DNA of 36,743 nt from Psammoneis japonica (GCA_008632985.1 QPGO01000094.1:1-36743), one strand, 5' to 3'; positions 6,293 through 36,743 are shown, counted from the first letter of the stretch. The notes: generated by a model from the letters alone, not told the origin. Program-made: numbers and translations.

Positions 6293-7525
6293 GATCAAAT
6301 CAAGCTGTCGGCTGTGGGATAAAACAAGAAAGAAATGTTGAGGAGATTGCTTTGACTTGCTTTTATTTACGCAGTTGCCGATACGAATTTAGCATCAGAA
6401 GGATACTATCAATGGGTGCTTGTTGTTTCTGGTGACAACCGTTGGAAACACCGCCATCTCCTCACCTTCAATTTCATTCACTTGTTGGTCAAAGGTGCAA
6501 GCTCGAGCATAGCACGACGAACGACGCGACGATGATGGCGGGCGGAGAGGGTCGCACGTTGCGCTTCGTACTGATCGTACAGTGGAATCGTGCGGAGCAC
6601 GTCGCACGCTACAAAGTAAGCGGTAAGTGAACAGTGACACGGATGACGGACAGGGAATGCTCGTGCCTTCTCTTCTCTGATTTATTCCACATCCGGGTTT
6701 TTCCCTGTAGCACTGTGAACTGCGCAGCGGCCCTCTGCTCTCTAGCTACGCTAGAGTAGAGGAGAACAATTTTGGACAGCCAAACGCGAGGTTCGGGGAA
6801 TGAAAACACATTGAACAATGACTGTCAACAAACGGCTCAGCAACCAGCAATGCAGGCAAAGCAAGTGCAGCCAGCCACCAATGCAAGTGTCACCTTCAAA
6901 CAACACACTCTGGCTCTCTTCCAATGACGGGAATGAGTGGTCAGGACAAGCGCTCTTGGTGCAGATGGGGAAGCACTGCCGTTTGACATTGGCACTTTTT
7001 GTGTTGGAACATGCAGAGCTCTGGAGCAGTCACACCAACCACAAAGTGGCATGTCAACCAAGCCACAAGTCAGCAATGCCACACAGCAACCTGCTGAGCA
7101 ACAAAGATGGTCAAAAAAGGAGCCATCGATGATGCCAGCCTTGCTCTTGGAGCTGTGCATGATCGGTCATCATTTGCGCCAGATGGTGCAGCACAGCACA
7201 CTGCTTGTGCCTGCTCTGAGTTGTTGATTGACGTGCACATTGTCTGCAGCCACTTGGCGAACAGGCGCATCAATCAAAGCAGGCGCCATGTTTCAGACAG
7301 GCTGACATTCAGAAGAAGAACATTGAGCTCATTTTGCAGCAAGGGAAGAGCTGCAGAGTCTTGCTCTTCACACAACAATGCAACACGATTGAGCATGCCA
7401 CCCAAACCAGTGAAGTGCAAAAAAAGATCTAGAGTCTCGAGAACTGCACAAAGCATCAGCAACTGCCACCTGACTTTTCTGCAAGGCTGGAAAAATTTGT
7501 TGAAGAATGTGGCTCAGACCCGTTG

Positions 7526-8272
7526 TGCTTGTGGAAATTGAGGTGTGATTCAGGGTGCAATTTTGGGGTGGTGCAAAAATGTGCATTGCACAAATTTACA
7601 CCCCAAATTTGCACCCGATTTTTGCATGAGTTCAAGAGTGTGAAATTTGACATCTGCAACTTTGTGAGCAACGACACATTCATTGAACACACGCTCCTGA
7701 AAAATTGTTGACATTCAAAGCAGGAACATCCCCATGTCTCTAATTTCAACCAACTTGTCTGTGCATGACTTGAACGCTCCAATGACTGCATCAAAACACC
7801 GCAGCATTTGGTGGCTCCACTGCAACCTTGCACACATCAAATCTTAGAATGATGCTGTTGATGTCACGCATCATTGTTGCATCCATGGCTGAGGTTTCAG
7901 CAACCATGTGACACATTTTTCTTCTAAGAAGGCATGAAGGTGCCATCATTCTGTCATTTGTTGACTTCAATCTTGTCACTTTTTGCCATTCTTTCTTTCA
8001 TGAACACACCACAATGGCTCCCCAGCAACAATTTTTCAACATTTTGTCGACCAAAGTTTGTCGCTGATTGTTGGTTGTCATTGTTGTTCAGTGTTCACAT
8101 GTTTTCTGCCATTGTGGATGATGATGAGTCTGTTGGCTGTGCAAAAAATTTTACAGGCAAAAAATGCATGTCTCTGGTGGCCCATTTGTTGGCTGCATTT
8201 TTTGAGGGGTGCATTCCGCACGTTTTTGCATCCCGAAATTGCACCCCGAATTGCACCCCTCCTCCACGAGCA
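7526..8272. mobile_element. Degenerate non-autonomous TIR element (~750 bp)
   Basis: 7528-7591 (cttgtggaaattgaggtgtgattcagggtgcaattttggggtggtgcaaaaatgtgc) is an imperfect inverted copy of 8209-8270 (reverse complement ctcgtggaggaggggtgcaattcggggtgcaatttcgggatgcaaaaacgtgc). Confidence 0.6.
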
Positions 8273-8794
8273 TGACAGGTCTCAGTGGCATGGTCAGATG
8301 AAGCTTGCAAGACAGACAGATGGAGCTCACTTGCACTGGCTCAGAGATTGTCATTGAAGATGCCTCTGATGTGGCCAGCTCACAGACCCTGGAGCAGTCA
8401 CAAGCCTCTTTGGCTCACAATGTCCACACAAGACCATTGAAATGGCCCTGACTCAAGCAGATCTATGCACTGCAAAGATGGCAGTGGACAAAAATGCGCA
8501 GCTCATTGTCCCAGGCAGCTCTGACTTTGTCACACATGTTGGCCCAAGCAAAAATTGAGTGGAGAACTTGCTGATGTCATCAAATTGCTGTGAGACGTGA
8601 GGAACAGATTTGTTCATTTGGACACAAACAGGCCAAAAACCTGCCACAGATCTTCTTGACAAAATGCTCTGTCTGAAATTGGGGAGGTGCCTGTTTCTTC
8701 AAACAAGCAAAGATGATGCGTTTCTGATTGCAAGTCAAACACACTCATCCACTTGTGAAAGCTGAGCAAAACACTTGGAGTGCAGGAGCTCTCA

Positions 8795-8865
8795 ACAGGA
8801 GTGCTTGAGATGCAGCTCTTGACAGGAGTGCTGGAAATGCAGCACTTGATTGGAGCACTCAAGAT
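8795..8865 (+). repeat. Degenerate 27-bp tandem repeat (~2.5 copies)
   Basis: acaggagtgcttgagatgcagctcttg / acaggagtgctggaaatgcagcacttg / attggagcactcaagat. Confidence 0.6.
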
Positions 8866-9918
8866 TGCCCAACACCAACCAACTTGGGCAGTGTGGAGGA
8901 AGTGGTGGGTGTGGCTGTCAATGGGCATGCTCAAAATGATGCAGCGCCAACTGACAAGGGTGGTGCGGAGGAAGCAGTGGCGGGCGCACACGATGCAACA
9001 TCAGCTGACAAGGTTGGCACAGTGGAGGCAGCAGATGAAATGCCAACACACCCAAAGGCATGCCAACAAAGGAAGAGCTCAAATGTGTGGGGATTGTTGA
9101 GGGCGCAATGTCTTGCCTGTTTGGGAAGGTCAAGTTTGCAAGCTTGGCACTCGAGGATGATGACAGGGTCAAAAAGAATCCAGTTGGCTTCAAGCTCTGA
9201 TGGCATCAATCCATGGAAAGTGTTGCTGTGCAAGATTTTAATCATGCAACTCACCACAAGCATGTTCAGAAGACTGCCAATGAGCTGTTGCTGCTTTGTC
9301 TCAAAAAGAACAGATGGAAACATGGGCAGGTCAAGTCCAAGAGTTCACAACAATGAGCAGCACCAAGTTGTCCCAATGAGAGCCAAAACAATGACAGGTG
9401 CTCTCTGACATGTCCACCACCCCAAACAGCATGACCAATGCTTGACTGACCAAGAAGAAGAAGTGCTGCTGCTGTGTCAAAGGATGTGACAACAACAGCG
9501 CCAGCAGCAAGTTGAGGCAAGCACCTCAAATTCCGCCAAAGCTGTTGAGTGGTGCGACCAGAGCAAACAAAATCTTGCACCGTGTCAGATCTTTCAAGCA
9601 GCAGGAGTGGACCAGCAGCTTGAGTCATGGTCGATCGTGCAACTTAAAAGACATCTGACTGTGTTGCTTGCACTCCAAGGAATCTGTCAGTGGTGGGAAG
9701 CTGTCAGTGGGATGCTGTCAAGTGTTGATGTCCAAAATGGCCAAATGGTTGCTGCATTGTCAGAGCCATTTGACGCTCCTGTGCTGACTGGGAAGATCAA
9801 CTTCCACACACCTCAAAATGTGCAACCAAGTGGTGCTGGCACATTTCAAGAGCTTCTTTGGCATGCTGTCACGTTGGGCTGGGCAAATTCAATGTTGTCT
9901 CCAGCGGCATGATCTGCA

Positions 9919-10945
9919 ATGGCAAGAGAAGCCAGTCAAGCACAAAACATTGAGAGCAGTCTTGTGTTGCCCACACAAAATGCATGGGAAAATGCAGATC
10001 CCAAGTGGAAGAAGCCATGCTTCACACACAAAGATTTGACTCCAGAAGAAGCAAAGCAACGCACCAGTTTCTGGGACTTGAAACATTTGCTGCAGCATGT
10101 GGCTGTTGTGCACAATGGCAACTTGGAAGTCATTGCCAAAACTGCAACAAAACTGACCTGGCTGGAAGAGCTTCTTTTGCATTTTGAATTTGCTTGGGGT
10201 TGCATGAGGACACAGCTGCAAGATTGCAAAAAAGAGAGCATGATGCACATCCACACACATTGAGAAAAACAATTGCTCATTGCCAGAAAAGCACGCCAGA
10301 TTTTTGGGTGAGATGGCCGATGCATGCACCACAACAAAGAGGGCGCAAATTCATGAGACACAAGAGCTGGGGTGCACACTTTTGTCCAACAACTGGCCAC
10401 CGCATTGTCACCCATGATGCGTCAAATGTTCCCATGCCAGATCCAAGCTTGGGTGACCTCAACCAAGCACTGCTCCACAAATGCTGCTGCAACACATGCA
10501 TTGTGCAAGGGTGGGTGTTGCTGCACAGCTGCATTGTTGGTTGTGTGGTTTGCCACTTGTGGCTGGACACAGTGGCGGTGATTGGCAGATTGAAGGTGCA
10601 AAGGCTCTTGAGCTCCAAAAGTTGTTTGCTGAAACTGACCCTTCTTCTTCCAGAGCCTTTCTGAATGCATTCAACAAAGGTTGCCATCAGATGTTGGAGA
10701 CACAAAAGCACAGTCAAATGTGCTGTCAACCGGAGTTGGCAGATGAAAAGTTCAGAGATGCAACAAGGTCACTTGCGCAGGTTGTGTGGCTGTCATCCGT
10801 TCTGGTGACAAGAGGTGTGCAAAATGCACCAAAACCTGTGTCCTGGTTCATTGAAAGAGGGCGCACCAACCAACTTTGGGGCATTGATTCTTCACTCTGC
10901 AATGCATGGGAGGCATTTGCATTTTTTTGCAAACTTCATGTTTGA
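9919..10945 (+). pseudogene. DDE transposase remnant, PIF/Harbinger-ISL2EU (DDE_Tnp_4)-like
   Basis: Frameshifted frames give HRIVTHDASNVPMP, GHSGGD, FLNAFNKGCH (recalled consensus DKGY) and AVIRSGDKR, in the order expected for this family. Confidence 0.55.
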
Positions 10946-11112
10946 CGTGTTTCAATGAATGTTGCTGCTGCAGTGCACAGAGAAAATGCAGAGCTGTGCA
11001 GTTGTGAGCAGCATTGAAACACGGGGTGCCAGCAGCTCATGTTGGCATTTAAAGCATCTTCATTGCATGGCAAAGCATGGTCATGGACTCTGCAACAAAT
11101 TTGCACCAGAAA

Positions 11113-11479
11113 TGCACCATGCTCGAAGAACGAGTGTAAACGAAAGTAGAGTGGTGTACGAAAAGTGGAAATTGTGAGATTGAATTTTGCTCTGTGATTT
11201 TTGGTTTCTCCGAACGAGTTCTCAATGGCCTAAAGCTTCTGTACTGCTTCTACAGACGAAAGGCCTTTCGGAGAATATATTCGTGACAACAGATTGTCCG
11301 GATGCGATTGCCATTGACACGTAAGATGTCAACATCGTCAATCGATCGTATTTGCAATTCTCGACATCCGATCAACTCTGTGTGATCGTTCTGTCCTTTG
11401 TACGCATCCACGACTGTGGTACGATTGACATATAAATAATATATAATCATATATATGTATATAACAGTCGCATACTGCA
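11113..11479 (-). repeat. 3' LTR of the Gypsy element
   Basis: Colinear without indels with 15471-15837; about 32 substitutions by hand count. Confidence 0.93.
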
Positions 11480-11490
11480 TTCGCCTCCCT
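11480..11490 (-). other. Polypurine tract (PPT)
   Basis: Minus strand AGGGAGGCGAA immediately precedes the 3' LTR. Confidence 0.75.
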
Positions 11491-13970
11491 AATTGCACAT
11501 TAGAGTCATTTGTAAGTGGATTATTCGACGGACATCGACAGTGTCAATAATGTCTCCACTTTCACTGTATTGTGCCATTAGCAATGACTGTTGTTGTTTT
11601 GTATAGGCAATATAGGGCCGTTCCAATTTCCGAATGTCTTTTGAGAGTGACATTGTTTGTTTCTCACTTAATATGTATATATATAGTATTACGTCGAGTA
11701 TTCTCATTGACGTTCTTGTTGATATGAACACAAGGACTAATTGTCCTGGAGTAGTGTTTTTCCTGATATCGATTGTACATAGCATCGTGCCCAGTACTTA
11801 ATGTACGCTCTTAATTATGGCGTTCACTTACTTACTTGTGGATTTCATGTAGTTTGGCGGGCTTACTTTATATGCCATATTGCTCTGCTGCACTACCACG
11901 TTTCATAAGTAATAATAAACGATGGTCAAGATATTATGACCATTTCGTCTTGATAATCAATCCTGTGATGGTTATGAATTCCATTATGGATTTTTTTTTG
12001 TACTTCAACCATCTATCAGTTGGATTTTAATCGTTATTTGGACGTTTCTTTCTGACATACCGGTGTTATTTTGTCATTCCGAAGGCACTGGTTTCGTGCA
12101 CTAAGTGGATAAATGTCCATTTTTCTTTTCTTTTTCTAGATCTTTGGCACATCTCGTGTGTCGACATGATGTATATTTTAATGTCTTGCCTCGTACATTG
12201 TACAATACAACCGTACGGGTGTTGTGAGATTGTCTTTTGCCAGTGTGAAGTGGATACGTATAATGTATACCAATCTGTCACTGTTTTTTCCTAAATCGTC
12301 CTTTAAAAAGGCGATTTTATCCTTGTGACATGAGCATTTTTCGATCTCGCTCGCCTCCACGAAAAGTGTTCGTATGATATGTCGCGTCCGACAATTTGGA
12401 GGGAATGTCTTCTTCCCGTTTTTTAACGGTAGGACATTGTCGTAGGATTCAATTTTCTATAGTAAGTCGGCTGATCGCGTCTATCGCGACGATGTTCGCC
12501 TTGCCCTCGTTGTATTCTAATTCGGGACTGAAGTTGTCAACGTATGACTTTGTCCGTTGTGTCTTATGATCCGTATATGTATAAATCTGTTGGCCAAACA
12601 GTATATTTCGGAATTTTATAAGTGTTTTCACTATGGACAGAAGTTCTTTTTCCGTTGTAACGTATAATATTGAAATCCGTGTATGATAACAATATAGTTT
12701 TTGATTTGATGCGCTCCACATTTTCGGAGACTTTTCGTTCCGTACTTGTACTTTTGCCGTTTGACCTTTATTGAGATGAATTTGGCTAGTATTGTACAGG
12801 AGATCGTTGAGACTACATGTCTCGATAACAGCAACGTATGACAACGAGATGTCGTAGTGTTCTTTACGTTTTTCTCGTGTTGCGATTGCTTGAATCGCCT
12901 CCATTTTCTTTGCAATCGATTGCATGTCGTTACGCATGGAAGTCTTGATAGTTTATTTCAAGTTAAATAGTGAAGGACTTTTGTTGTTAACCTTCTAAGC
13001 GACTGTTCTAGTCGTTTGAATGCCGCATTAAGCTGTCACTTGCACAGGTGATGTTTTGAAGTTACTTTTGTCAGGCACAAACGATCACATGCAGTCGTTC
13101 TGACAACTTCAAACCTGTTGTGAGTTCACTCAAGTGTTGTATAAAAATATCTGGGGCTCTGTAGATTCTCATTGGAAGTCCACAGTGCTCATTTTCTCCC
13201 CACGGCATGATTTTCGTGTGAGCACGACGTGTGCTTTTTTTGTTTGACATGGTGGCATTCCATGTTTGAATCAAACAGATCACATGCATGAAACGTTCTT
13301 GCTTCAATGGCATTTCCTGAACATTGGGTGAAGGATGCACCACCTGTGTGAACCTTGTGCCAAGCTTCTGAGTGTCGGGTGCAGTCGAACTCGACCTGTT
13401 TTCTTTGGACAATGAGTCTCAGAGCGACTCATTCAGAGCAACTTCATTCTTGAGACTTCAATCTTTCACAATGGGTCAAACTCCTTTTGATTGGACGCCT
13501 CCAAAGACTGTGACAGGAGAAGGTTCTCACGCGTCGTGGAATCGCGTCAGATTTTCCACGATGAGATCCGCTGATGCTTCCCATGCATTCGTCTGAGGAA
13601 CTTTTCAAAACGATTTCAACCTCTCAAGAAGAAGATTGAGTTGGTTGTGTTCATTTGGGTCAGATGCATCGCCGCAGTTGTCACTTGATTAAGATCAATG
13701 GCGTGACAATGTGAGTCGAGGACCATTGGCTCCGTTGTTGACTCTGTTCACGGCGTCACATTTTTCAATGTGATCGGTTTTCAGCTTGAAAACATCGGCA
13801 TCGAAGAGTGTGTGAACATTCTTCGTAAGGCAATTGCTTCTTCCCATTAGATTTCTGCATTTGCGCAGTCCAGTGTGACTTGCAGGGCTGGACATTAAGT
13901 CGCGTCCCATGATCACATCATTTGAACCTGAAGAAAATTTGGTGTTTTCAACACATGCTGTTTGCATGTC
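11491..13970 (-). pseudogene. Gypsy pol remnants (protease, RT, RNase H, integrase)
   Basis: DVIMGRDLM (protease, ~13900); FDSNMECHH and MPWGENEHCGLPM...APDIF (RT, ~13140-13280); YVTTEKELLSIVKTL...YTDHK and ANIVAIDAISRL (RNase H, 12450-12670); DWY...QH...CQR, TPGQLV and DTVDVRRI (integrase). Confidence 0.85.
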
Positions 13971-15470
13971 AGCATGCCTTAAATTTCACACAGCGAGAAC
14001 TGAATTCGGTGTTTGCTGTCAGTCGTAAAGAGCTCACCCTTGGTTTCCCAAGTTTTTGGTGGCGGATTCTTGTGTTCTCAACTTTCGCACGAATTTGCGC
14101 AAAATTGTGGTTGACGATGTTCCGTTGTCGACAGGAACACGCAGGTGCTTTTTTTTTTCTCCTTTCCCAAGGAAGCATTCACACAAATGATGACTCCTGG
14201 ACTGGCATGAATTATTTCTGCCTTTTTTCTGGGCTTCCCAATGTCCAGCAAAGCACACAATTCGTGAACAGACCAAAATTGTTCTTTGGATTCAGCCTGG
14301 ATCATCCGATCAAATTGGTGTTTTTCTTCACTGAGGGCATCAGAATCTGATTCTTTGCCCTTGTGCTCTTTTTCTTTGTTCAAGGAACTCGCTTTGAGCA
14401 TTTTTTGAACCGCCTGATCAATCATGACGTTCATCTCTTTTTTTGCGAGTGGCATTTTCGTCATCGCGACGCGACCGCGTGCGATTGCCATTTGAACGGC
14501 GCATTTTTGGGTCTCTTTCAGAGTCACCCTTGCACTCTTTTGCCAGTTCATTTTTAGAATGGCTTCAATCCGTGATGTGGGCATTCTTTTTTCAAAGATG
14601 AGACCTTGCATTCACTTTGGATTGTTCTGGCACCATGTGGGAGACCATTTTTGGAACCAAATTTGGAACCTTTTTTATTTTGGAACCAACTGCGCTGTCA
14701 GAGCCTGAGTTGACATGTTTTTTCGTCACGGACGTCATGAACGACCTTTAGATGACTCAAAACTTAATCAGCTCATCAAGGATGAGTTGCAATGGTTGAT
14801 TGTTTTGGACAGTAGACTGATGCTGCCATCCTTGCGGTGCGAGTGACAGCTGACAAATCAGCGCTTGGTTTCCCGCTAGATTCGACTTAGAATCCATCTG
14901 AGGGTCGCACAGACTCTCATCGTTGACCTCTTGGGTCTGACAGAGGCTTTCCCGCTGTCAAGCAGCTCTGGTTTTCTTCAGGTCATCTCGAAAATAATTT
15001 CCCTGATTCTGAAGTGCATTTCCTCGGAGGACATGAGTTGTGAGACGCTTGAGGTGCTTTCCAACGATTCCCTCTTGCTCCTTGGACTCGAGGATCATCG
15101 ATTCGGTCTCAAAAAACTCTCCAACAGTCTCTCCTTGCATGCCAGACGCATTTCTTGGACCTGATCGACTCGGAACTTGCATTCTCTGCAACCATGACTT
15201 GGTGTAGATTTTTTGACAATGCGGTGTGCTTGAGAGCCCTTGATCCTTGGGTGCTTGGAACAGACCGCACTGGAGCGAATCCTCTTGTCTGGTGGACGAA
15301 AAACAACGTTCCATCTTGAGGCACTGCTCGGCTTGAGCTTCTTCCGCTTTGGAAATCGATTCCAGCAGAACTGATGCGATTCATTCCTGTTCACAGAAGA
15401 ATTTGCAAAGGCACATCAGTTAAAATTTTCATTTTCCGTGCTTTTTACCTTCTGTGGTGTGTGTGCACAA

Positions 15471-15837
15471 TGCACTGTGCTCGAAGAACGAGTGCAAACG
15501 AAAGTAGAACAGTGTGCGAAAAGTGGAAATTATGAGATTAAATTTTGCTCTGTGATTTTTGGTTTCTCCGAACGAGTTCTCAATGGCCCAAAGCTTCTGT
15601 GCTGCTTCTACAGACGAAAGGCCTTTCGGAGAACACATTCGTGACAACAGATTGTCCGGATGCGATTGCCATTGACACGCAAGATGTCAACATCGTCAAT
15701 CGATCGTATTTGCAATTCTCGACATCCGATCAACTCTGTGTGATCGTTCTGTCCTTTGCACGCATCCATGACTGTGGTGCGATTGACGTGCAAATGACGT
15801 GCAATCACACATGTGTGCACAACAGTCGCATGCTGCA
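15471..15837 (-). repeat. 5' LTR of the Gypsy element
   Basis: Direct repeat of 11113-11479 with TG...CA ends. Confidence 0.93.
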
Positions 15838-15841
15838 GAAA

Positions 15842-18220
15842 ATTCAACGCCCCAAAAATGAACCATGAACACCTTCCATTGTGAGCTTGATCTGCTGCAC
15901 AAGAAGGTTGTTTCTTTCAAGATGCACATCTTTGGCTTTTTTCTCTCTCCCTGCTCTGTCTGTTTGTGTGCTGGCTCATCTCTTCTGTGCAATGCTCTGT
16001 TGTGTGTGTGTGCTCTCCTTTTGCCAGAAAAAAGATGTGGCTGTGGGATGTGTGCTGCCACTTGCTTTGAATCATGTCTGCAAGTGCGTGCCATTCTTTC
16101 GCTGAAGTGCAGCATCCTGTTGGGCAAATTCAAATTGTTGTTGACACAAGTGCCCATCAACATGATCATGGCAGAGTCTGTTTTTCTCTGCGCTCTTGAT
16201 CACAGCATTGTGTGTGCCAAAGAAATGAAAACAAACAACAAGTGTCTGTGCCAAAGAAATGAAAACAAACAACAAATCTTCTTTGGCTCTCTTGATCTCA
16301 GTGTGCAAAGCTCTTGTTGGTTGAATTGCCGCTCAAAGTGTTGTCATCAATTGACAAGAGCTGGCACTCTTCAACATGGGTGTTTTTTCCTCTTGTGTGT
16401 CATGGCAAGCTCACCCCAAAGGGGTGGCTCAAGCAAAAGCTGCACTCAGCAACCACAGTGTTTTCTGCTAAAATCAACAGAGCTGCAGCCAAATCTGATG
16501 CTGGGTGATCTGGCACAAATGTCAATTGTGTGGTGGTGCCTGAGGCCAATGACTGATGCCTCAAAAAACACATTTTGGGTCTCTTTGCATGTGTGCAAAA
16601 TGTGTTTTTGACAACAACAATTGCTCTCTTTTGTTGCAAACCTCCTCACAATGCATCATTGACAAATCTGCCACACCCACTCTCCCAGTTTCCGGTTTCC
16701 AGTGTTGCCCCATTTAAAATTGAGGCATTGCCCCAGACAAAAAATCAGCACTGCACAAGCACCAGATCACCCCCAGCTGCTTTGTTGCCTGTTTCCTGTC
16801 ACTGTTGTTGTGCGCCATTGTCATCATTGCTTGCAAAGTGAGTCACTTCGCCAGCTGCTTTGTGGCACCACACAAGAAGTTTTGCGCATCATCTGCAAGC
16901 TCTGCAAAATGACGTGGTCTTTCTGGGGCCTGCTGGAAATTTTGGTCACATGCATTGAAAAGGTCAACATGAGCAGCAAGCCACAAGAGCAGGACCTGGG
17001 TGCATTGTTGTGCTGTTTCTGAACTCTGAACATTTTTCTTTGGTTGTGCATTTTCCTCATGGCACCATTTTTGGAGATGCTTCCACACATTTCTGTGCAC
17101 AGCCAGCTGTTTTTGAATTAGACAGCCAACCAAGCAGCTGGCAACCACCCAAACAACCACAAAGTTTTCACTGCCACAAGCCTGGAATGCCTGGCACATG
17201 ACACTGGTGCTCCTCAACTCTGAAGCACAACCCCCTGGGTTGGCCAGCGCTCCTCAGCTCTGAAGCACCACCTCCTGGGTTGGCTGGCTGAGCTGGTCAA
17301 AGTCAAGAGATTAGAGCACAAAAGCAAAGCTGCCTCAAGGAGCAAGTGCACATGTGCTGGTCATCTGAGCACACTTGCTTGCACCATGAAAAAGCAAAAA
17401 GGCTGCTGAGTTTGGGAAAAGTGCACAGTTTCTCAGCAGTGTTGAGGTCACTCAGAGTCTCTCTTCATTTCAGACCTCCTGGCTGTGCTGCTTGCCTGCA
17501 TTTGCAGCAGCAGCAATGCCAAAAGACCCTCTGTCTCAGCTGCCAGCATTGGCTGCAGCCCATTAATCAGACCATGATGTGCTGCCTCCAGAGCCAGTGA
17601 AAGACTGTCTCTTTGGCACATCTGCCCCCCTGGCAAGACATTGGCGTGCGCTGCGCTTTGAGCGCAGCTGATTGTGAAAATTTGAGCCGAGAGAGAGAGA
17701 AGAGCAGTGTGCCTCATTTCTTTGAGGGGCTGTCTGATTTGTCCTCTCTTCTGCTGCAGGCTTTAATTTTCAACATGCACGGCAACAAATGGCGGCACTG
17801 CACCCCTGCCAGGGCATGCAGCAACAGCGTGGCGCGACAGCCCCACATGGGAGAGAAAAGCCTCCACAGGGTTTGCAGTCACCAGCTCAACAATCAACTT
17901 GCAGAAGAATGGGTTTTCTTTCACAACAACTGCCCTTGTTTTTTTTTTCTGACAAGAGACAAAAGAGGTCACCTGCCGCCACAAAAGTCCCTTGTTTTGG
18001 CAAAAAAGCTGCTGCAGTGCCCAGAAGCCGGTGCTGGAGAGAGCCCCTCCTCCATTTGACAACAACATCATGTGTGCAGTGCAGTGATGCAGGACAACCT
18101 TGACAATCATGAACGAGACCAGTTTTCTCATCAATGGGGAGAAACACTGGGCAGTTTCAATGCGATTGCCCGCCACTTTGACGTGAGCAACTTTCGACGA
18201 CTGGGGGTGTGACGAAAAAA
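15842..18220. other. TpA- and CpG-depleted degenerate repeat domain (right part of island), family unassigned
   Basis: About six TA in ~2.4 kb; ORFs are Tyr-free; the pattern ends abruptly at ctttaaaattataatac (18221-18237). Confidence 0.85.
17205..17284 (+). repeat. 40-bp tandem duplication
   Basis: gctcctcaactctgaagcacaaccccctgggttggc / gctcctcagctctgaagcaccacctcctgggttggc. Confidence 0.85.
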
Positions 18221-18262
18221 CTTTAAAATTATAATACATTTTTCATTTCGTTTGTACAGTAG

Positions 18263-18568: not shown

Positions 18569-18698
18569 GTACCGCTTTTCCTCCACATTTCTGCGTCATT
18601 CAATCTATGATGGCGATCTTTCTGCATTGATTGTAGTACTGCTTTTCCTCCACATTTCTCCGTCATTCAGTCCATGATGGCGATCTTCTGCATGGATT
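18569..18698 (+). repeat. ~65-bp tandem duplication
   Basis: gcttttcctccacatttct(g/c)cgtcattca(a/g)tc(t/c)atgatggcgatctt occurs at ~18574 and ~18641. Confidence 0.85.
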
Positions 18699-35020: not shown

Positions 35021-36018
35021 CTTATTATCTTCCACACGTAAACTGATAATGGTCTTCTAAAGACTGGTCCTGACTATTGACTTTCAGCTCCGGCAGAGCA
35101 ATCTACGTCAACCTGAAGCATGCAGTGCTGACAGCGAAGTTAGGTTGAGTCTTCACAACATTATTCCAGCCCAGCTTGCCAGTGCCGTATTAGTTTTTTC
35201 CCGTCCCGTTCCCTTTTCGTGTTTCTCACGACTTTTTCGAATTTTCCAAAGTACACTTTTCCTGATATTACAGAATACAATGGCTATCCAGCAGTTCCTC
35301 ACATCCAGCCACGGTTACATAATGAGTAGGAGTTGTACAGTAGAATTCGTTGAAACATACTGTACGACGTCAGCAAGAACATGTGTCTGGCATGCATCCT
35401 ACATAATGTGTACAGTACATACTACCGTAGGGCTATTGCACCCAATCGACGGACGCCTTCCGTTTTGTTTCGCGGTTCTCGCTATAGCGAGCGGCGTAGC
35501 ATCAGTCACTTTCATGGAGTGCACCGCTGGTCGTTGTCGACAACCTCCGTGTCTTGTGTTATACACCACTGTGGAGGAACCGGATGCAACGTCGTCTCAT
35601 GAAAAGGACACGTCTCTTGCAAAGGAAATCGAAGGCACCGTTGCCGCAACACTGGCGTCTCTTGCACCGCCGCGTAACGCAACGATCACAACTGCGACAG
35701 CGGAGGTGGCGCCGACTTCAACCATGACGAACCAACCGTCGTCGTTGGTGGAAGGAGACGTGCCGGCATCGCAGACTGCAGCAAAACCGCCTGCAAAGGA
35801 GCCAATCGCCCTCCCCCCATTGATCCCTTGCAAGGCATCCGAAATCCATGGAGGACTGGATTTGGTCACCATGCACAATTGCGAATCGGTGAACTCAAGC
35901 GGCACCATGCATTTTAAGGATCCAAACTGCGACATGAGTTCGATCCACACAACCGAAGCAAAAGCAGATGCAAACAACCTGGATCCTGGAAACAACGAAA
36001 CAACTGAGATGGCAGCAA

Positions 36019-36311
36019 NNNNNNNNNNNNNNNNNNNNNNNNNNNNNNNNNNNNNNNNNNNNNNNNNNNNNNNNNNNNNNNNNNNNNNNNNNNNNNNNNN
36101 NNNNNNNNNNNNNNNNNNNNNNNNNNNNNNNNNNNNNNNNNNNNNNNNNNNNNNNNNNNNNNNNNNNNNNNNNNNNNNNNNNNNNNNNNNNNNNNNNNNN
36201 NNNNNNNNNNNNNNNNNNNNNNNNNNNNNNNNNNNNNNNNNNNNNNNNNNNNNNNNNNNNNNNNNNNNNNNNNNNNNNNNNNNNNNNNNNNNNNNNNNNN
36301 NNNNNNNNNNN
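36019..36311. other. Assembly gap (N run)
   Basis: Run of n characters. Confidence 0.99.
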
Positions 36312-36743
36312 TTCGACGAAAATTGGCGGCTTCGCCTTCAGATGCGCGTTAAATTGAAGGTGCCTTGGAGGGATCACATCGAAATCGGTCGTTCTCAAAG
36401 GAAGGGCGCAGGACTCGGTGTCTTCGCATTGTCTTTCTTCCAGAAACAAGAGGTCATTGGCGTGTGCATTGGCACGGAAGTGTCTAGAAACCCAACTCCC
36501 TTCACTCACTGCTCTCATGACGAGCAGCACGGAATCGACCACAGCGACTGTCTCCTGACACTGCGCGAGCCCAGCGGTCACCATGTGACGGCAGCTCCCC
36601 AACCCTTGGAACTGGAAGAGGGTGAGAACACCAAGCCTCTACACCTGGGTGTGCATTGTGTGAACGATGCGGAGGACACCTTTGAAGACCCCACCAAAAT
36701 GACGAAGTTGGAAGTCAATGCCAGCAACTGTCATTTCAACAAC
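36312..36743 (+). pseudogene. SET-domain-like coding fragment, TpA-stripped, runs off the window end
   Basis: Open frame from 36312: IEIGRSQRKGAGLGVFALSFFQKQEVIGVCIG...PLHLGVHCVND...NCHFN, matching SET motifs GxGLFA / IGxYxG / xxxxN with Tyr positions replaced. Confidence 0.6.

Follow-up and report, generated by a model that had tools for sequence, protein, structure and literature searches.

How can a stretch of a diatom genome come to lose nearly all of its TpA dinucleotides over several kilobases, up to sharp borders, when the genes on either side keep theirs? The question is raised by a contig of Psammoneis japonica (GCA_008632985.1 QPGO01000094.1:1-36743), referred to here as the window, that is, the whole stretch of 36,743 nucleotides (nt) that was analysed. 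Between about 6.8 and 18.2 kb it holds a TpA-poor island into which a Ty3/gypsy long terminal repeat (LTR) retrotransposon has inserted. A first-pass annotation of this DNA had proposed a genome-defence system that recognises repeats and converts A:T to G:C pairs at TpA, in other words a reversal of the repeat-induced point mutation (RIP) of fungi. The conversion at TpA is borne out by three lines of evidence that agree with one another, namely the LTR pair of the element, the logic of tyrosine codons and the polarised substitution spectra of an independent transposon family. The recognition of repeats is not borne out, as discussed below.

The scarcity of TpA is real and extreme. Scored in consecutive 500-nt windows, the observed/expected (obs/exp) ratio of TA is 0.00-0.10 over positions 7001-11000 and 0.03-0.22 over 13001-18000, against mostly 0.4-0.9 in the flanks. 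Tract limits were set from exact TA positions. Both outer borders are sharp: on the left a TA at 6757 is followed by none until 7430, and on the right a TA at 17764 is followed by none until 18224. Inside the island, dense TA resumes at 11137-13162. The resulting parts are listed below; obs/exp values are strand-symmetrised, and the TA counts refer to parts cut a few bases off the final bounds where a counting range is given.

6758-11112, no strand: tract A, TpA-free, CpG-poor and TG/CA-rich, adjoining tract D until the retrotransposon inserted; 10 TA (in 4353 nt, 6758-11110); obs/exp TA 0.03, CA/TG 1.89, CpG 0.25
11113-13162, minus strand: part B, TA-normal, with the 3' LTR, an integrase-like region, RNase H and the C-terminal reverse transcriptase (RT); 152 TA; obs/exp TA 0.79, CA/TG 1.19, CpG 1.31
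13163-15837, minus strand: part C, TpA-converted with CpG retained, with the N-terminal RT, an upstream region and the 5' LTR; 23 TA (in 2678 nt, 13163-15840); obs/exp TA 0.12, CA/TG 1.44, CpG 0.84
15838-18223, no strand: tract D, TpA-free and CpG-poor continuation of tract A, its residual TAs all in the context YTAR; 6 TA (in 2383 nt, 15841-18223); obs/exp TA 0.04, CA/TG 1.79, CpG 0.21
35563-36743, plus strand: tract E, a second TpA-poor stretch that spans a gap of 293 N and continues past the end of the window
Flanks: 281 TA in 6757 nt and 757 TA in 17777 nt; obs/exp TA 0.63, CA/TG 1.12, CpG 0.96

The earlier counts of about 10 TA in 6.8-11.1 kb and about 6 in 15.8-18.2 kb are therefore correct, and so are the TG/CA excess of the island (1.44-1.89 in A, C and D) and the ordinary TA of the flanks. 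The extent given for the island holds as far as TA poverty is concerned, but it overlooked the TA-normal block at 11113-13162 and the fact that 13.2-15.8 kb is TA-poor too; also missed were the CpG loss in tracts A and D and the second TA-poor stretch from 35563. In tract A the two products are balanced between strands (TG 497, CA 531). Moreover, the loss of TpA is separable in time from the decay of CpG, as tracts A and D have lost both, and part C and tract E only TpA.

The element that divides the island is described by the following features.

11113-15837, minus strand: Ty3/gypsy LTR retrotransposon of 4725 nt, defective, inserted into A+D, with LTRs, target-site duplication (TSD) and RT_RNaseH
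11109-11112, no strand: TSD GAAA, left copy, a 4-mer identical to 15838-15841 and directly outside the LTR termini
15838-15841, no strand: TSD GAAA, right copy
11113-11479, minus strand: 3' LTR in element orientation, TA-normal, 25 TA
15471-15837, minus strand: 5' LTR in element orientation, TpA-converted, 5 TA
12458-12664, minus strand: RNase H domain (Pfam PF17917), 55% identity to residues 616-694 of protein P0003
12669-13376, minus strand: decayed RT domain spanning the border 13162/13163, 25% identity to P0003 residues 340-577 by tblastn

Its assignment rests on direct LTRs of 367 nt with TG...CA termini and a 4-bp TSD, as expected of Ty3/gypsy LTRs, on a Pfam RT_RNaseH match at E 2e-6 and on tblastn matches to the Pol proteins P0003, P0005 and P0006. 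The gypsy order of RT, RNase H and integrase is found, the alignment to P0005 extending to 12110, into the integrase zinc-finger region. The copy carries stops and one frameshift and lacks the YxDD box. At 13162/13163 the sequence switches abruptly from TA-normal to TpA-erased within one RT domain of one element, and the RT alignment to P0003 stays in a single frame across this border. Recoded as purines and pyrimidines (RY), so that transitions leave no trace, part C from 13168 on matches the RT region of 20 related loci with 150-283 bits, against at most 108 bits for the RY controls (reversed sequence and flank). The description of the locus as a transposon island is thus right for 11113-15837 and fails for A and D, where neither a Pfam match nor an RY match above controls was obtained.

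The two LTRs of an element are identical at integration and their differences arose later, which makes the pair a record of what has happened to this DNA since then. Over 367 nt the copies differ at 32 positions, all transitions, with 0 transversions. Of these, 23 fall in a TA that the C copy lacks and 2 in a TA that the B copy lacks. At one adjacent pair of sites the B copy reads CA and the C copy TG, indicating that the same ancestral TA was struck in both. Read from B to C, 26 of the 32 differences are A>G or T>C, and 23 of those 26 fall in a TA of copy B. Specifically, the 25 TA sites of the B copy appear in the C copy as CA (12), TG (9), CG (1) and TA (3). The copies keep 25 and 5 TA, respectively, against 22 and 23 CpG. 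At least 29 of the differences can be traced to TpA sites and at most about 3 are unrelated to them, so that ordinary divergence is below 1%; the share of TpA lost, on the other hand, is about 86% in the C-side LTR and about 14% in the B-side LTR. In other words, the change from TA to TG/CA came after the integration of a young Ty3/gypsy element.

The direction of the change follows from the genetic code, tyrosine being coded only by TAY. Part B retains the tyrosines conserved in the family in YVTTEKELL, TYTDHK and ELEY, whereas in part C the family RT motif GKYEYQKLPMG is aligned to GENEHCGLPM, the tyrosine of 'EY' standing opposite histidine. A similar picture is given by E2, an open reading frame (ORF) of tract E at 36312-36743, which has 0 tyrosines in 144 amino acids (aa). 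Its 15 homologues at E<=1e-3, obtained in an exhaustive search, define five columns in which tyrosine is the majority residue, and there E2 reads E, C, C, H and C, that is, Cys or His at four of five. Part B also matches host DNA in its dinucleotide values, and A, C and D are the outliers.

An independent test is offered by a gypsy family present in metagenome contigs. Scanning the contigs with the RNase H alignment yielded 77 loci, many of which belong to one family of 82-90% identity. Eighteen of the 77, those covering one 2.2-kb Pol segment, were aligned, the near-identical L061 and L072 being left out. The ancestral state was taken as the column majority of the other TA-normal copies; polarisation by singletons only, with all other copies identical, had masked TpA sites hit more than once. 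As the copies are related, the counts below are of sequences and not of events, a first point to be set against the interpretation.

L063: TA to TG/CA 23/32; A>G or T>C at other A/T 22/324
L065: TA to TG/CA 30/47; A>G or T>C at other A/T 10/364
L041: TA to TG/CA 26/73; A>G or T>C at other A/T 17/609
L050: TA to TG/CA 26/73; A>G or T>C at other A/T 23/609
L028: TA to TG/CA 0/30; A>G or T>C at other A/T 7/196

In the first four copies, 36-73% of ancestral TpA has been converted, against 3-7% transitions at other A/T sites. When called neighbours were required, the two most-converted copies gave 22/30 and 28/45 for TA to TG/CA, and 0/104 and 1/100 for the reverse. The check that the first-pass annotation had itself proposed, polarised spectra, thus returns the excess, and does so in an independent gypsy family. 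How far a copy has been converted bears no relation to its ordinary divergence (40 transversions and 9/58 sites converted in L064, 9 and 30/47 in L065), which fits an episodic or locus-specific action. Runs tests for clustering of conversions within eight family copies gave nothing significant (p 0.25-0.94).

The metagenome loci also include TpA-free, TG/CA-rich tracts without Pfam matches that abut TA-normal gypsy sequence: L047:2751-5493, L058:1751-3250, L076:1-750 and the whole of L063. Their architecture is the same as that of window tracts A and D relative to B. The lowest TA obs/exp in any 1 kb is 0.02 for L047, 0.13 for L063, 0.14 for L076 and 0.16 for L058, these being the loci with a TA-free tract beside TA-normal DNA, against a median of 0.57 for this lowest value per metagenome locus.

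Both data sets define the target further, as the adenine of 5'-TAY-3' on either strand. Among the TAs that survive in the TpA-poor parts of the window, YTAR accounts for 24/39 against 194/1038 in the flanks (p=4e-9), and RTAY for 1/39 against about 29%. The contexts in tract A alone are 7 YTAR, 3 YTAY, 0 RTAR and 0 RTAY. This is the expected pattern, as RTAY offers two TAY targets and YTAR none on either strand. Relative to the flanks, A+D retain 0.01 of TAT, 0.01 of TAC, 0.06 of TAG and 0.18 of TAA. In the metagenome family, conversion per strand depends on the base at +1 in the same way: 84/337 (0.25) for C, 43/203 (0.21) for T, 24/399 (0.06) for G and 14/277 (0.05) for A, with little effect of positions -2 and +2. 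The converted strand obeys the rule as well, RTAR giving 62 CA and 17 TG and YTAY giving 40 TG and 18 CA (p=3e-8). Considering the family sites with a TA, TG or CA outcome, TA was kept at 181/196 YTAR against 65/124 RTAY (p=2e-16). Conversions at RTAY yielded TG (27) and CA (32) about equally, which indicates no strand bias. Taken together, the locus records a regional hypermutation over about 10 kb, most of a young retrotransposon included, that is far faster than ordinary mutation, sharply bordered, restricted to transitions and strand-symmetric.

To our knowledge, a cellular system that removes TpA through A:T to G:C hypermutation was first described in a 2026 preprint on Bigelowiella natans. 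In mutation-accumulation lines of that chlorarachniophyte sequenced with Illumina, two integrated viral regions received 231 of the 302 mutations; A>G or T>C accounted for 230 of the 231, and TpA was the site of every GC-biased one (Mettrop et al., bioRxiv 10.64898/2026.01.13.699255, main text). The same text reports a rate of about 6e-7, seen in 11 of 15 lines; 124 genomic clusters poor in TpA and rich in CpA+TpG; an enrichment of RT and DDE domains among low-TpA coding sequences; and a homologue of ADAT2 as candidate enzyme. By the cluster thresholds given there (at least 3 kb, obs/exp TpA at most 0.43, CpA+TpG at least 1.52), tracts A (0.03/1.89) and D (0.04/1.79) pass on composition and part C (0.12/1.44) is just below the second value; tract D measures only 2.4 kb alone, against the 3-kb minimum, and was contiguous with A before the insertion.

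As far as that main text describes the B. natans process, the likeness is close. The changes, nearly all A>G or T>C, affect TpA and produce TpG or CpA depending on the strand; the affected regions are sharply bounded and consist there of foreign or mobile DNA, one of the tracts here being a gypsy element; and the long-term footprint is low TpA with high CpA+TpG. What is new relative to B. natans is the lineage, the retrotransposon target, the near-saturation and the refined motif. Specifically, the host is a diatom (Stramenopila) and not a chlorarachniophyte (Rhizaria); the clearest target is an LTR retrotransposon instead of giant-virus and virophage inserts; obs/exp values of 0.03-0.12 are near saturation, against 0.45 in the B. 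natans region derived from a nucleocytoplasmic large DNA virus (NCLDV); and a need for a 3' pyrimidine (TAY) is seen, the word 'trinucleotide' occurring 0 times in the main text of the preprint. Conversely, the B. natans mutations were caught de novo, and the evidence here is a footprint in assembled sequence. The earlier statement that no such process was described in diatoms stands for diatoms, for which no report of TpA-erasing hypermutation was found in the literature ('diatom' occurs 0 times in the same main text), and not in general, as the B. natans preprint describes the same process. The SPLASH paper (PMC9258296) proved unrelated to TpA erasure.

On these grounds we consider it quite probable that the process at this locus is real, directional, exerted at the level of DNA and of the B. 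natans kind. An adenine-deaminase-type cause, one of those suggested in the first-pass annotation, fits the A:T to G:C change. In such a mechanism, DNA adenine would be deaminated to hypoxanthine and read as G at the next replication. This is the simplest chemistry, also put forward by the B. natans authors in their main text, and we give it an even chance or slightly better. The enzyme would be expected to have a TadA-like 'UAC' preference. It may find its substrate through a silenced or foreign chromatin domain rather than through repeat homology: the LTRs of one element, only 4.4 kb apart, have fared in opposite ways, which speaks against a simple homology trigger, and hence against the repeat targeting first proposed, and in favour of domain targeting. 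The outcome would be inactivation. As every tyrosine codon is TAY, tyrosines would turn into Cys or His, for example in the RT YxDD box; TAA and TAG stops and TATA-like and AATAAA-like signals would be erased, and ATA could become ATG. With few stops created, long spurious ORFs would persist.

Bacterial TadA has U-A-C as its natural site, which matches TAY, and TadA, ADAT2-ADAT3 and adenine base editors convert A to I beside a 5' U or T; unlike what is proposed here, the natural substrates of TadA and ADAT2-ADAT3 are tRNA loops. A more far-reaching possibility, which we advance tentatively and below even chance, is that TpA(Y)-directed editing of DNA adenine is an ancient defence common to distant lineages of Stramenopila, Alveolata and Rhizaria (SAR), including diatoms, chlorarachniophytes and the hosts of the metagenome family. 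It would be aimed at silenced or foreign chromatin and not at repeats, would be carried out by a TadA-like 'UAC' deaminase, and would act as a 'tyrosine eraser', putting reverse transcriptases, recombinases and capsid genes out of action with their frames left open.

Besides the relatedness of the family copies, several points weigh against this interpretation. Block B, TA-normal inside the island, may have been spared as lying outside the targeted domain, or may be an assembly chimera. Gene conversion with an unmutated donor copy is a third possibility, and would account for the block stopping precisely at the edge of the element. Tracts A and D yielded no Pfam family from 37 island ORFs and six whole frames with stops read as X, the only match among these being RT_RNaseH in part B; the frames of tract E likewise gave no Pfam family, and at E<=10 only a chance-level Ephrin_CRD. 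As for the metagenome family, its flanking ORFs matched only Exo70_C, RVT_2 and PIF/Harbinger transposase, which name no host, and a flank ORF of L050 had no homologue at E<=1e-5. A single DNA sequencing run, X1, contains 0.72 of sampled 31-mers and may be the source of the assembly itself. Finally, in strand-symmetric data TAY on one strand is indistinguishable from RTA on the other.

From this last ambiguity comes the rival explanation that survives best, which we nevertheless find unlikely. The thymine of 5'-RTA-3' could be modified, through a hydroxylation like that of 5-hydroxymethyluracil (5hmU) or base J, and mispair with G, giving T to C. Thymine modification in some protists favours TpA. 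However, no evidence of such modification in diatoms emerged in this analysis, and the only experimental precedent, that of B. natans, proposes adenine deamination in its main text, itself a proposal.

The second candidate cause of the first-pass annotation was a Y-family polymerase such as Pol eta. In this explanation, error-prone repair synthesis with a WA hotspot would be recruited repeatedly to silenced DNA. The Pol eta hotspot includes TA, and its commonest error is A to G. A WA hotspot predicts the loss of AA too, but with obs/exp values of 1.23-1.33 in A, C and D (flanks 1.13) AA is not depleted; neither the strong need for a pyrimidine at +1, nor the lack of transversions between the LTRs, nor the near-saturation of TAY sites speaks for a polymerase. 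We regard this cause as very improbable.

A sequencing or assembly artefact, in which modified bases of heterochromatin are miscalled (A as G, C as T) or mutated and unmutated copies are joined, has still less to recommend it. The abrupt B/C border within one element could be a chimeric join, and an assembly gap lies next to the called bases of tract E. On the other side, the same signature and the same TAY rule recur in independent metagenome assemblies, a recurrence that leaves this rival weak. Moreover, the stretch from which the 31-mers were sampled is about 77% TA-poor, so that, given the fraction present in X1, most TA-poor words are present in accurate reads; two further runs of the same sample contain next to none of the sampled words, and no RNA run was found with them. 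The length of the 293-N gap would resemble a paired-read size estimate, and the de novo mutations of B. natans came from Illumina reads, according to the main text of the preprint (bioRxiv 10.64898/2026.01.13.699255).

A reversal of polarity, with elements natively TpA-free and block B struck by a RIP-like C to T change (CpA/TpG to TpA), merits next to no credence. It can appeal to the fact that the LTR comparison by itself has no outgroup and to the lower G+C of B (0.39) relative to C (0.46). Against it stand the TA, CA/TG and CpG values of B, which equal those of host DNA, its conserved tyrosines at places where C and E2 read Cys or His, and the near-absence of TG/CA to TA changes in the polarised family. 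A native TpA-free composition was in any case rejected, as a sequence without tyrosine codons cannot encode these proteins.

Equally negligible is an ADAR-like A-to-I editing of transposon RNA fixed through reverse transcription. ADAR favours a 5' U, and the one identified element is a retrotransposon. Such editing is at odds with changes that are equal on both strands, with LTRs that were identical at integration and now differ, with a sharp border inside the element, with the presence of the signature in the non-element tracts A, D and E, and with a favoured +1 base that is a pyrimidine and not G.

Deamination of 5-methylcytosine (5mC) and RIP were rejected outright, the former because it cannot remove TpA and the latter because it runs in the opposite direction. 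Both are nonetheless useful terms of comparison. CpG decay is seen in A and D (0.21-0.25) and also feeds TG/CA, but in C and E the loss of TpA left CpG nearly untouched (0.84; 1.02 and 0.82). RIP, in Neurospora and other fungi, resembles the process inferred here in being a post-integration, DNA-level transition hypermutation of mobile DNA that is dinucleotide-specific, affects both strands and has sharp borders. It differs in that C to T changes at CpA create TpA, which is destroyed here, and in that RIP needs a duplication and mutates both copies, whereas the two LTRs fared very differently. APOBEC3, in turn, shares the features of a deaminase-type innate defence that leaves context-specific clusters of transitions in integrated retroelements. 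However, it acts on cytosine in minus-strand cDNA, giving G to A on one strand before integration; the changes described here are A:T to G:C, strand-symmetric, arise after integration and extend outside the element.

The B. natans precedent, as set out in the main text, covers one species and two viral inserts, and a footprint in a diatom retrotransposon and in an environmental family broadens its range. It suggests a pathway widespread among marine protists, with transposons among its targets in addition to viruses. Given the genetic tractability of diatoms, which are also dominant ecologically, deaminase knock-outs and mutation-accumulation tests are feasible, and the 5'-TAY-3' rule narrows the search for the enzyme. 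If the SAR-wide proposal were true, the TAY motif together with the presence or absence of the footprint across protists would permit phylogenetic profiling for that enzyme. A natural adenine editor of double-stranded DNA would also be of biotechnological interest. For annotation, the consequence is that TpA-erased tracts give long spurious ORFs without tyrosine and conceal transposons from protein-based methods, and that RY alignment recovers them.

Tract E, at the right end of the window, has 5 TA in about 890 called bases, with TA obs/exp of 0.08 and 0.13 and normal CpG (1.02 and 0.82); the lowest TA value among 156 flank windows of 450 nt is 0.20. The gap itself occupies 36019-36311, and its odd length suggests a size estimated from read pairs. 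The family of E2 has one named member, from the diatom Amphora coffeaeformis. A SET-like domain is weak in it: 5 of 12 scanned homologues match SET at E<0.01, one of them above the gathering score, and E2 itself has no SET match in Pfam even at E<=10, so that 'SET-like' is a label of the family only. Some environmental homologues are poor in tyrosine (1.1% in P0120 and 0.4% in P0130, against 3.6-6.4% in nine relatives). Both P0120 and P0130 have His or Cys at the conserved tyrosine columns of the family, and they may have been translated from TpA-erased DNA in other organisms.

The host is identified by the genes flanking the island, which encode a mitochondrial carrier, a TPR protein, Dus, CENP-O, an acyltransferase and a ThiF-type enzyme. 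A flank ORF of 720 aa has 112 homologues, and all 9 of the 9 that bear an organism name are from diatoms, with best identities of 44-47%. This supports the diatom host assumed at first and points to one without a close sequenced relative. The genome of B. natans is intron-rich, and the long uninterrupted ORFs of the window flanks do not fit that.

A, D and E were also compared with the 77 metagenome loci by BLAST in RY space; the best matches (62-100 bits) were no better than the reversed and flank controls (64-108) and were rejected. A search for repeats within the window, in ordinary and RY space, returned only the LTR pair and a weak inverted repeat of about 100 nt in tract A. Its arms, 7492-7592 and 8210-8306, share 87% RY identity and are visible mainly in RY coding; they may be what remains of a hairpin, or of terminal repeats in the ancestral sequence.

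Two further observations concern the metagenome loci. At L041:2492-3719, plus strand, a PIF/Harbinger-type transposase (Plant_tran, DDE_Tnp_4) adjoins the partly TpA-converted gypsy copy, and at L068:2758-4156 the gypsy Pol region contains an internal tandem duplication of about 700 nt with 90% identity, which may be an assembly artefact. In the window itself, a 52-nt unit occurs twice in tandem at 18569-18687, just beyond the island on its right side; the copies are 92% identical and have a period of 67 nt.

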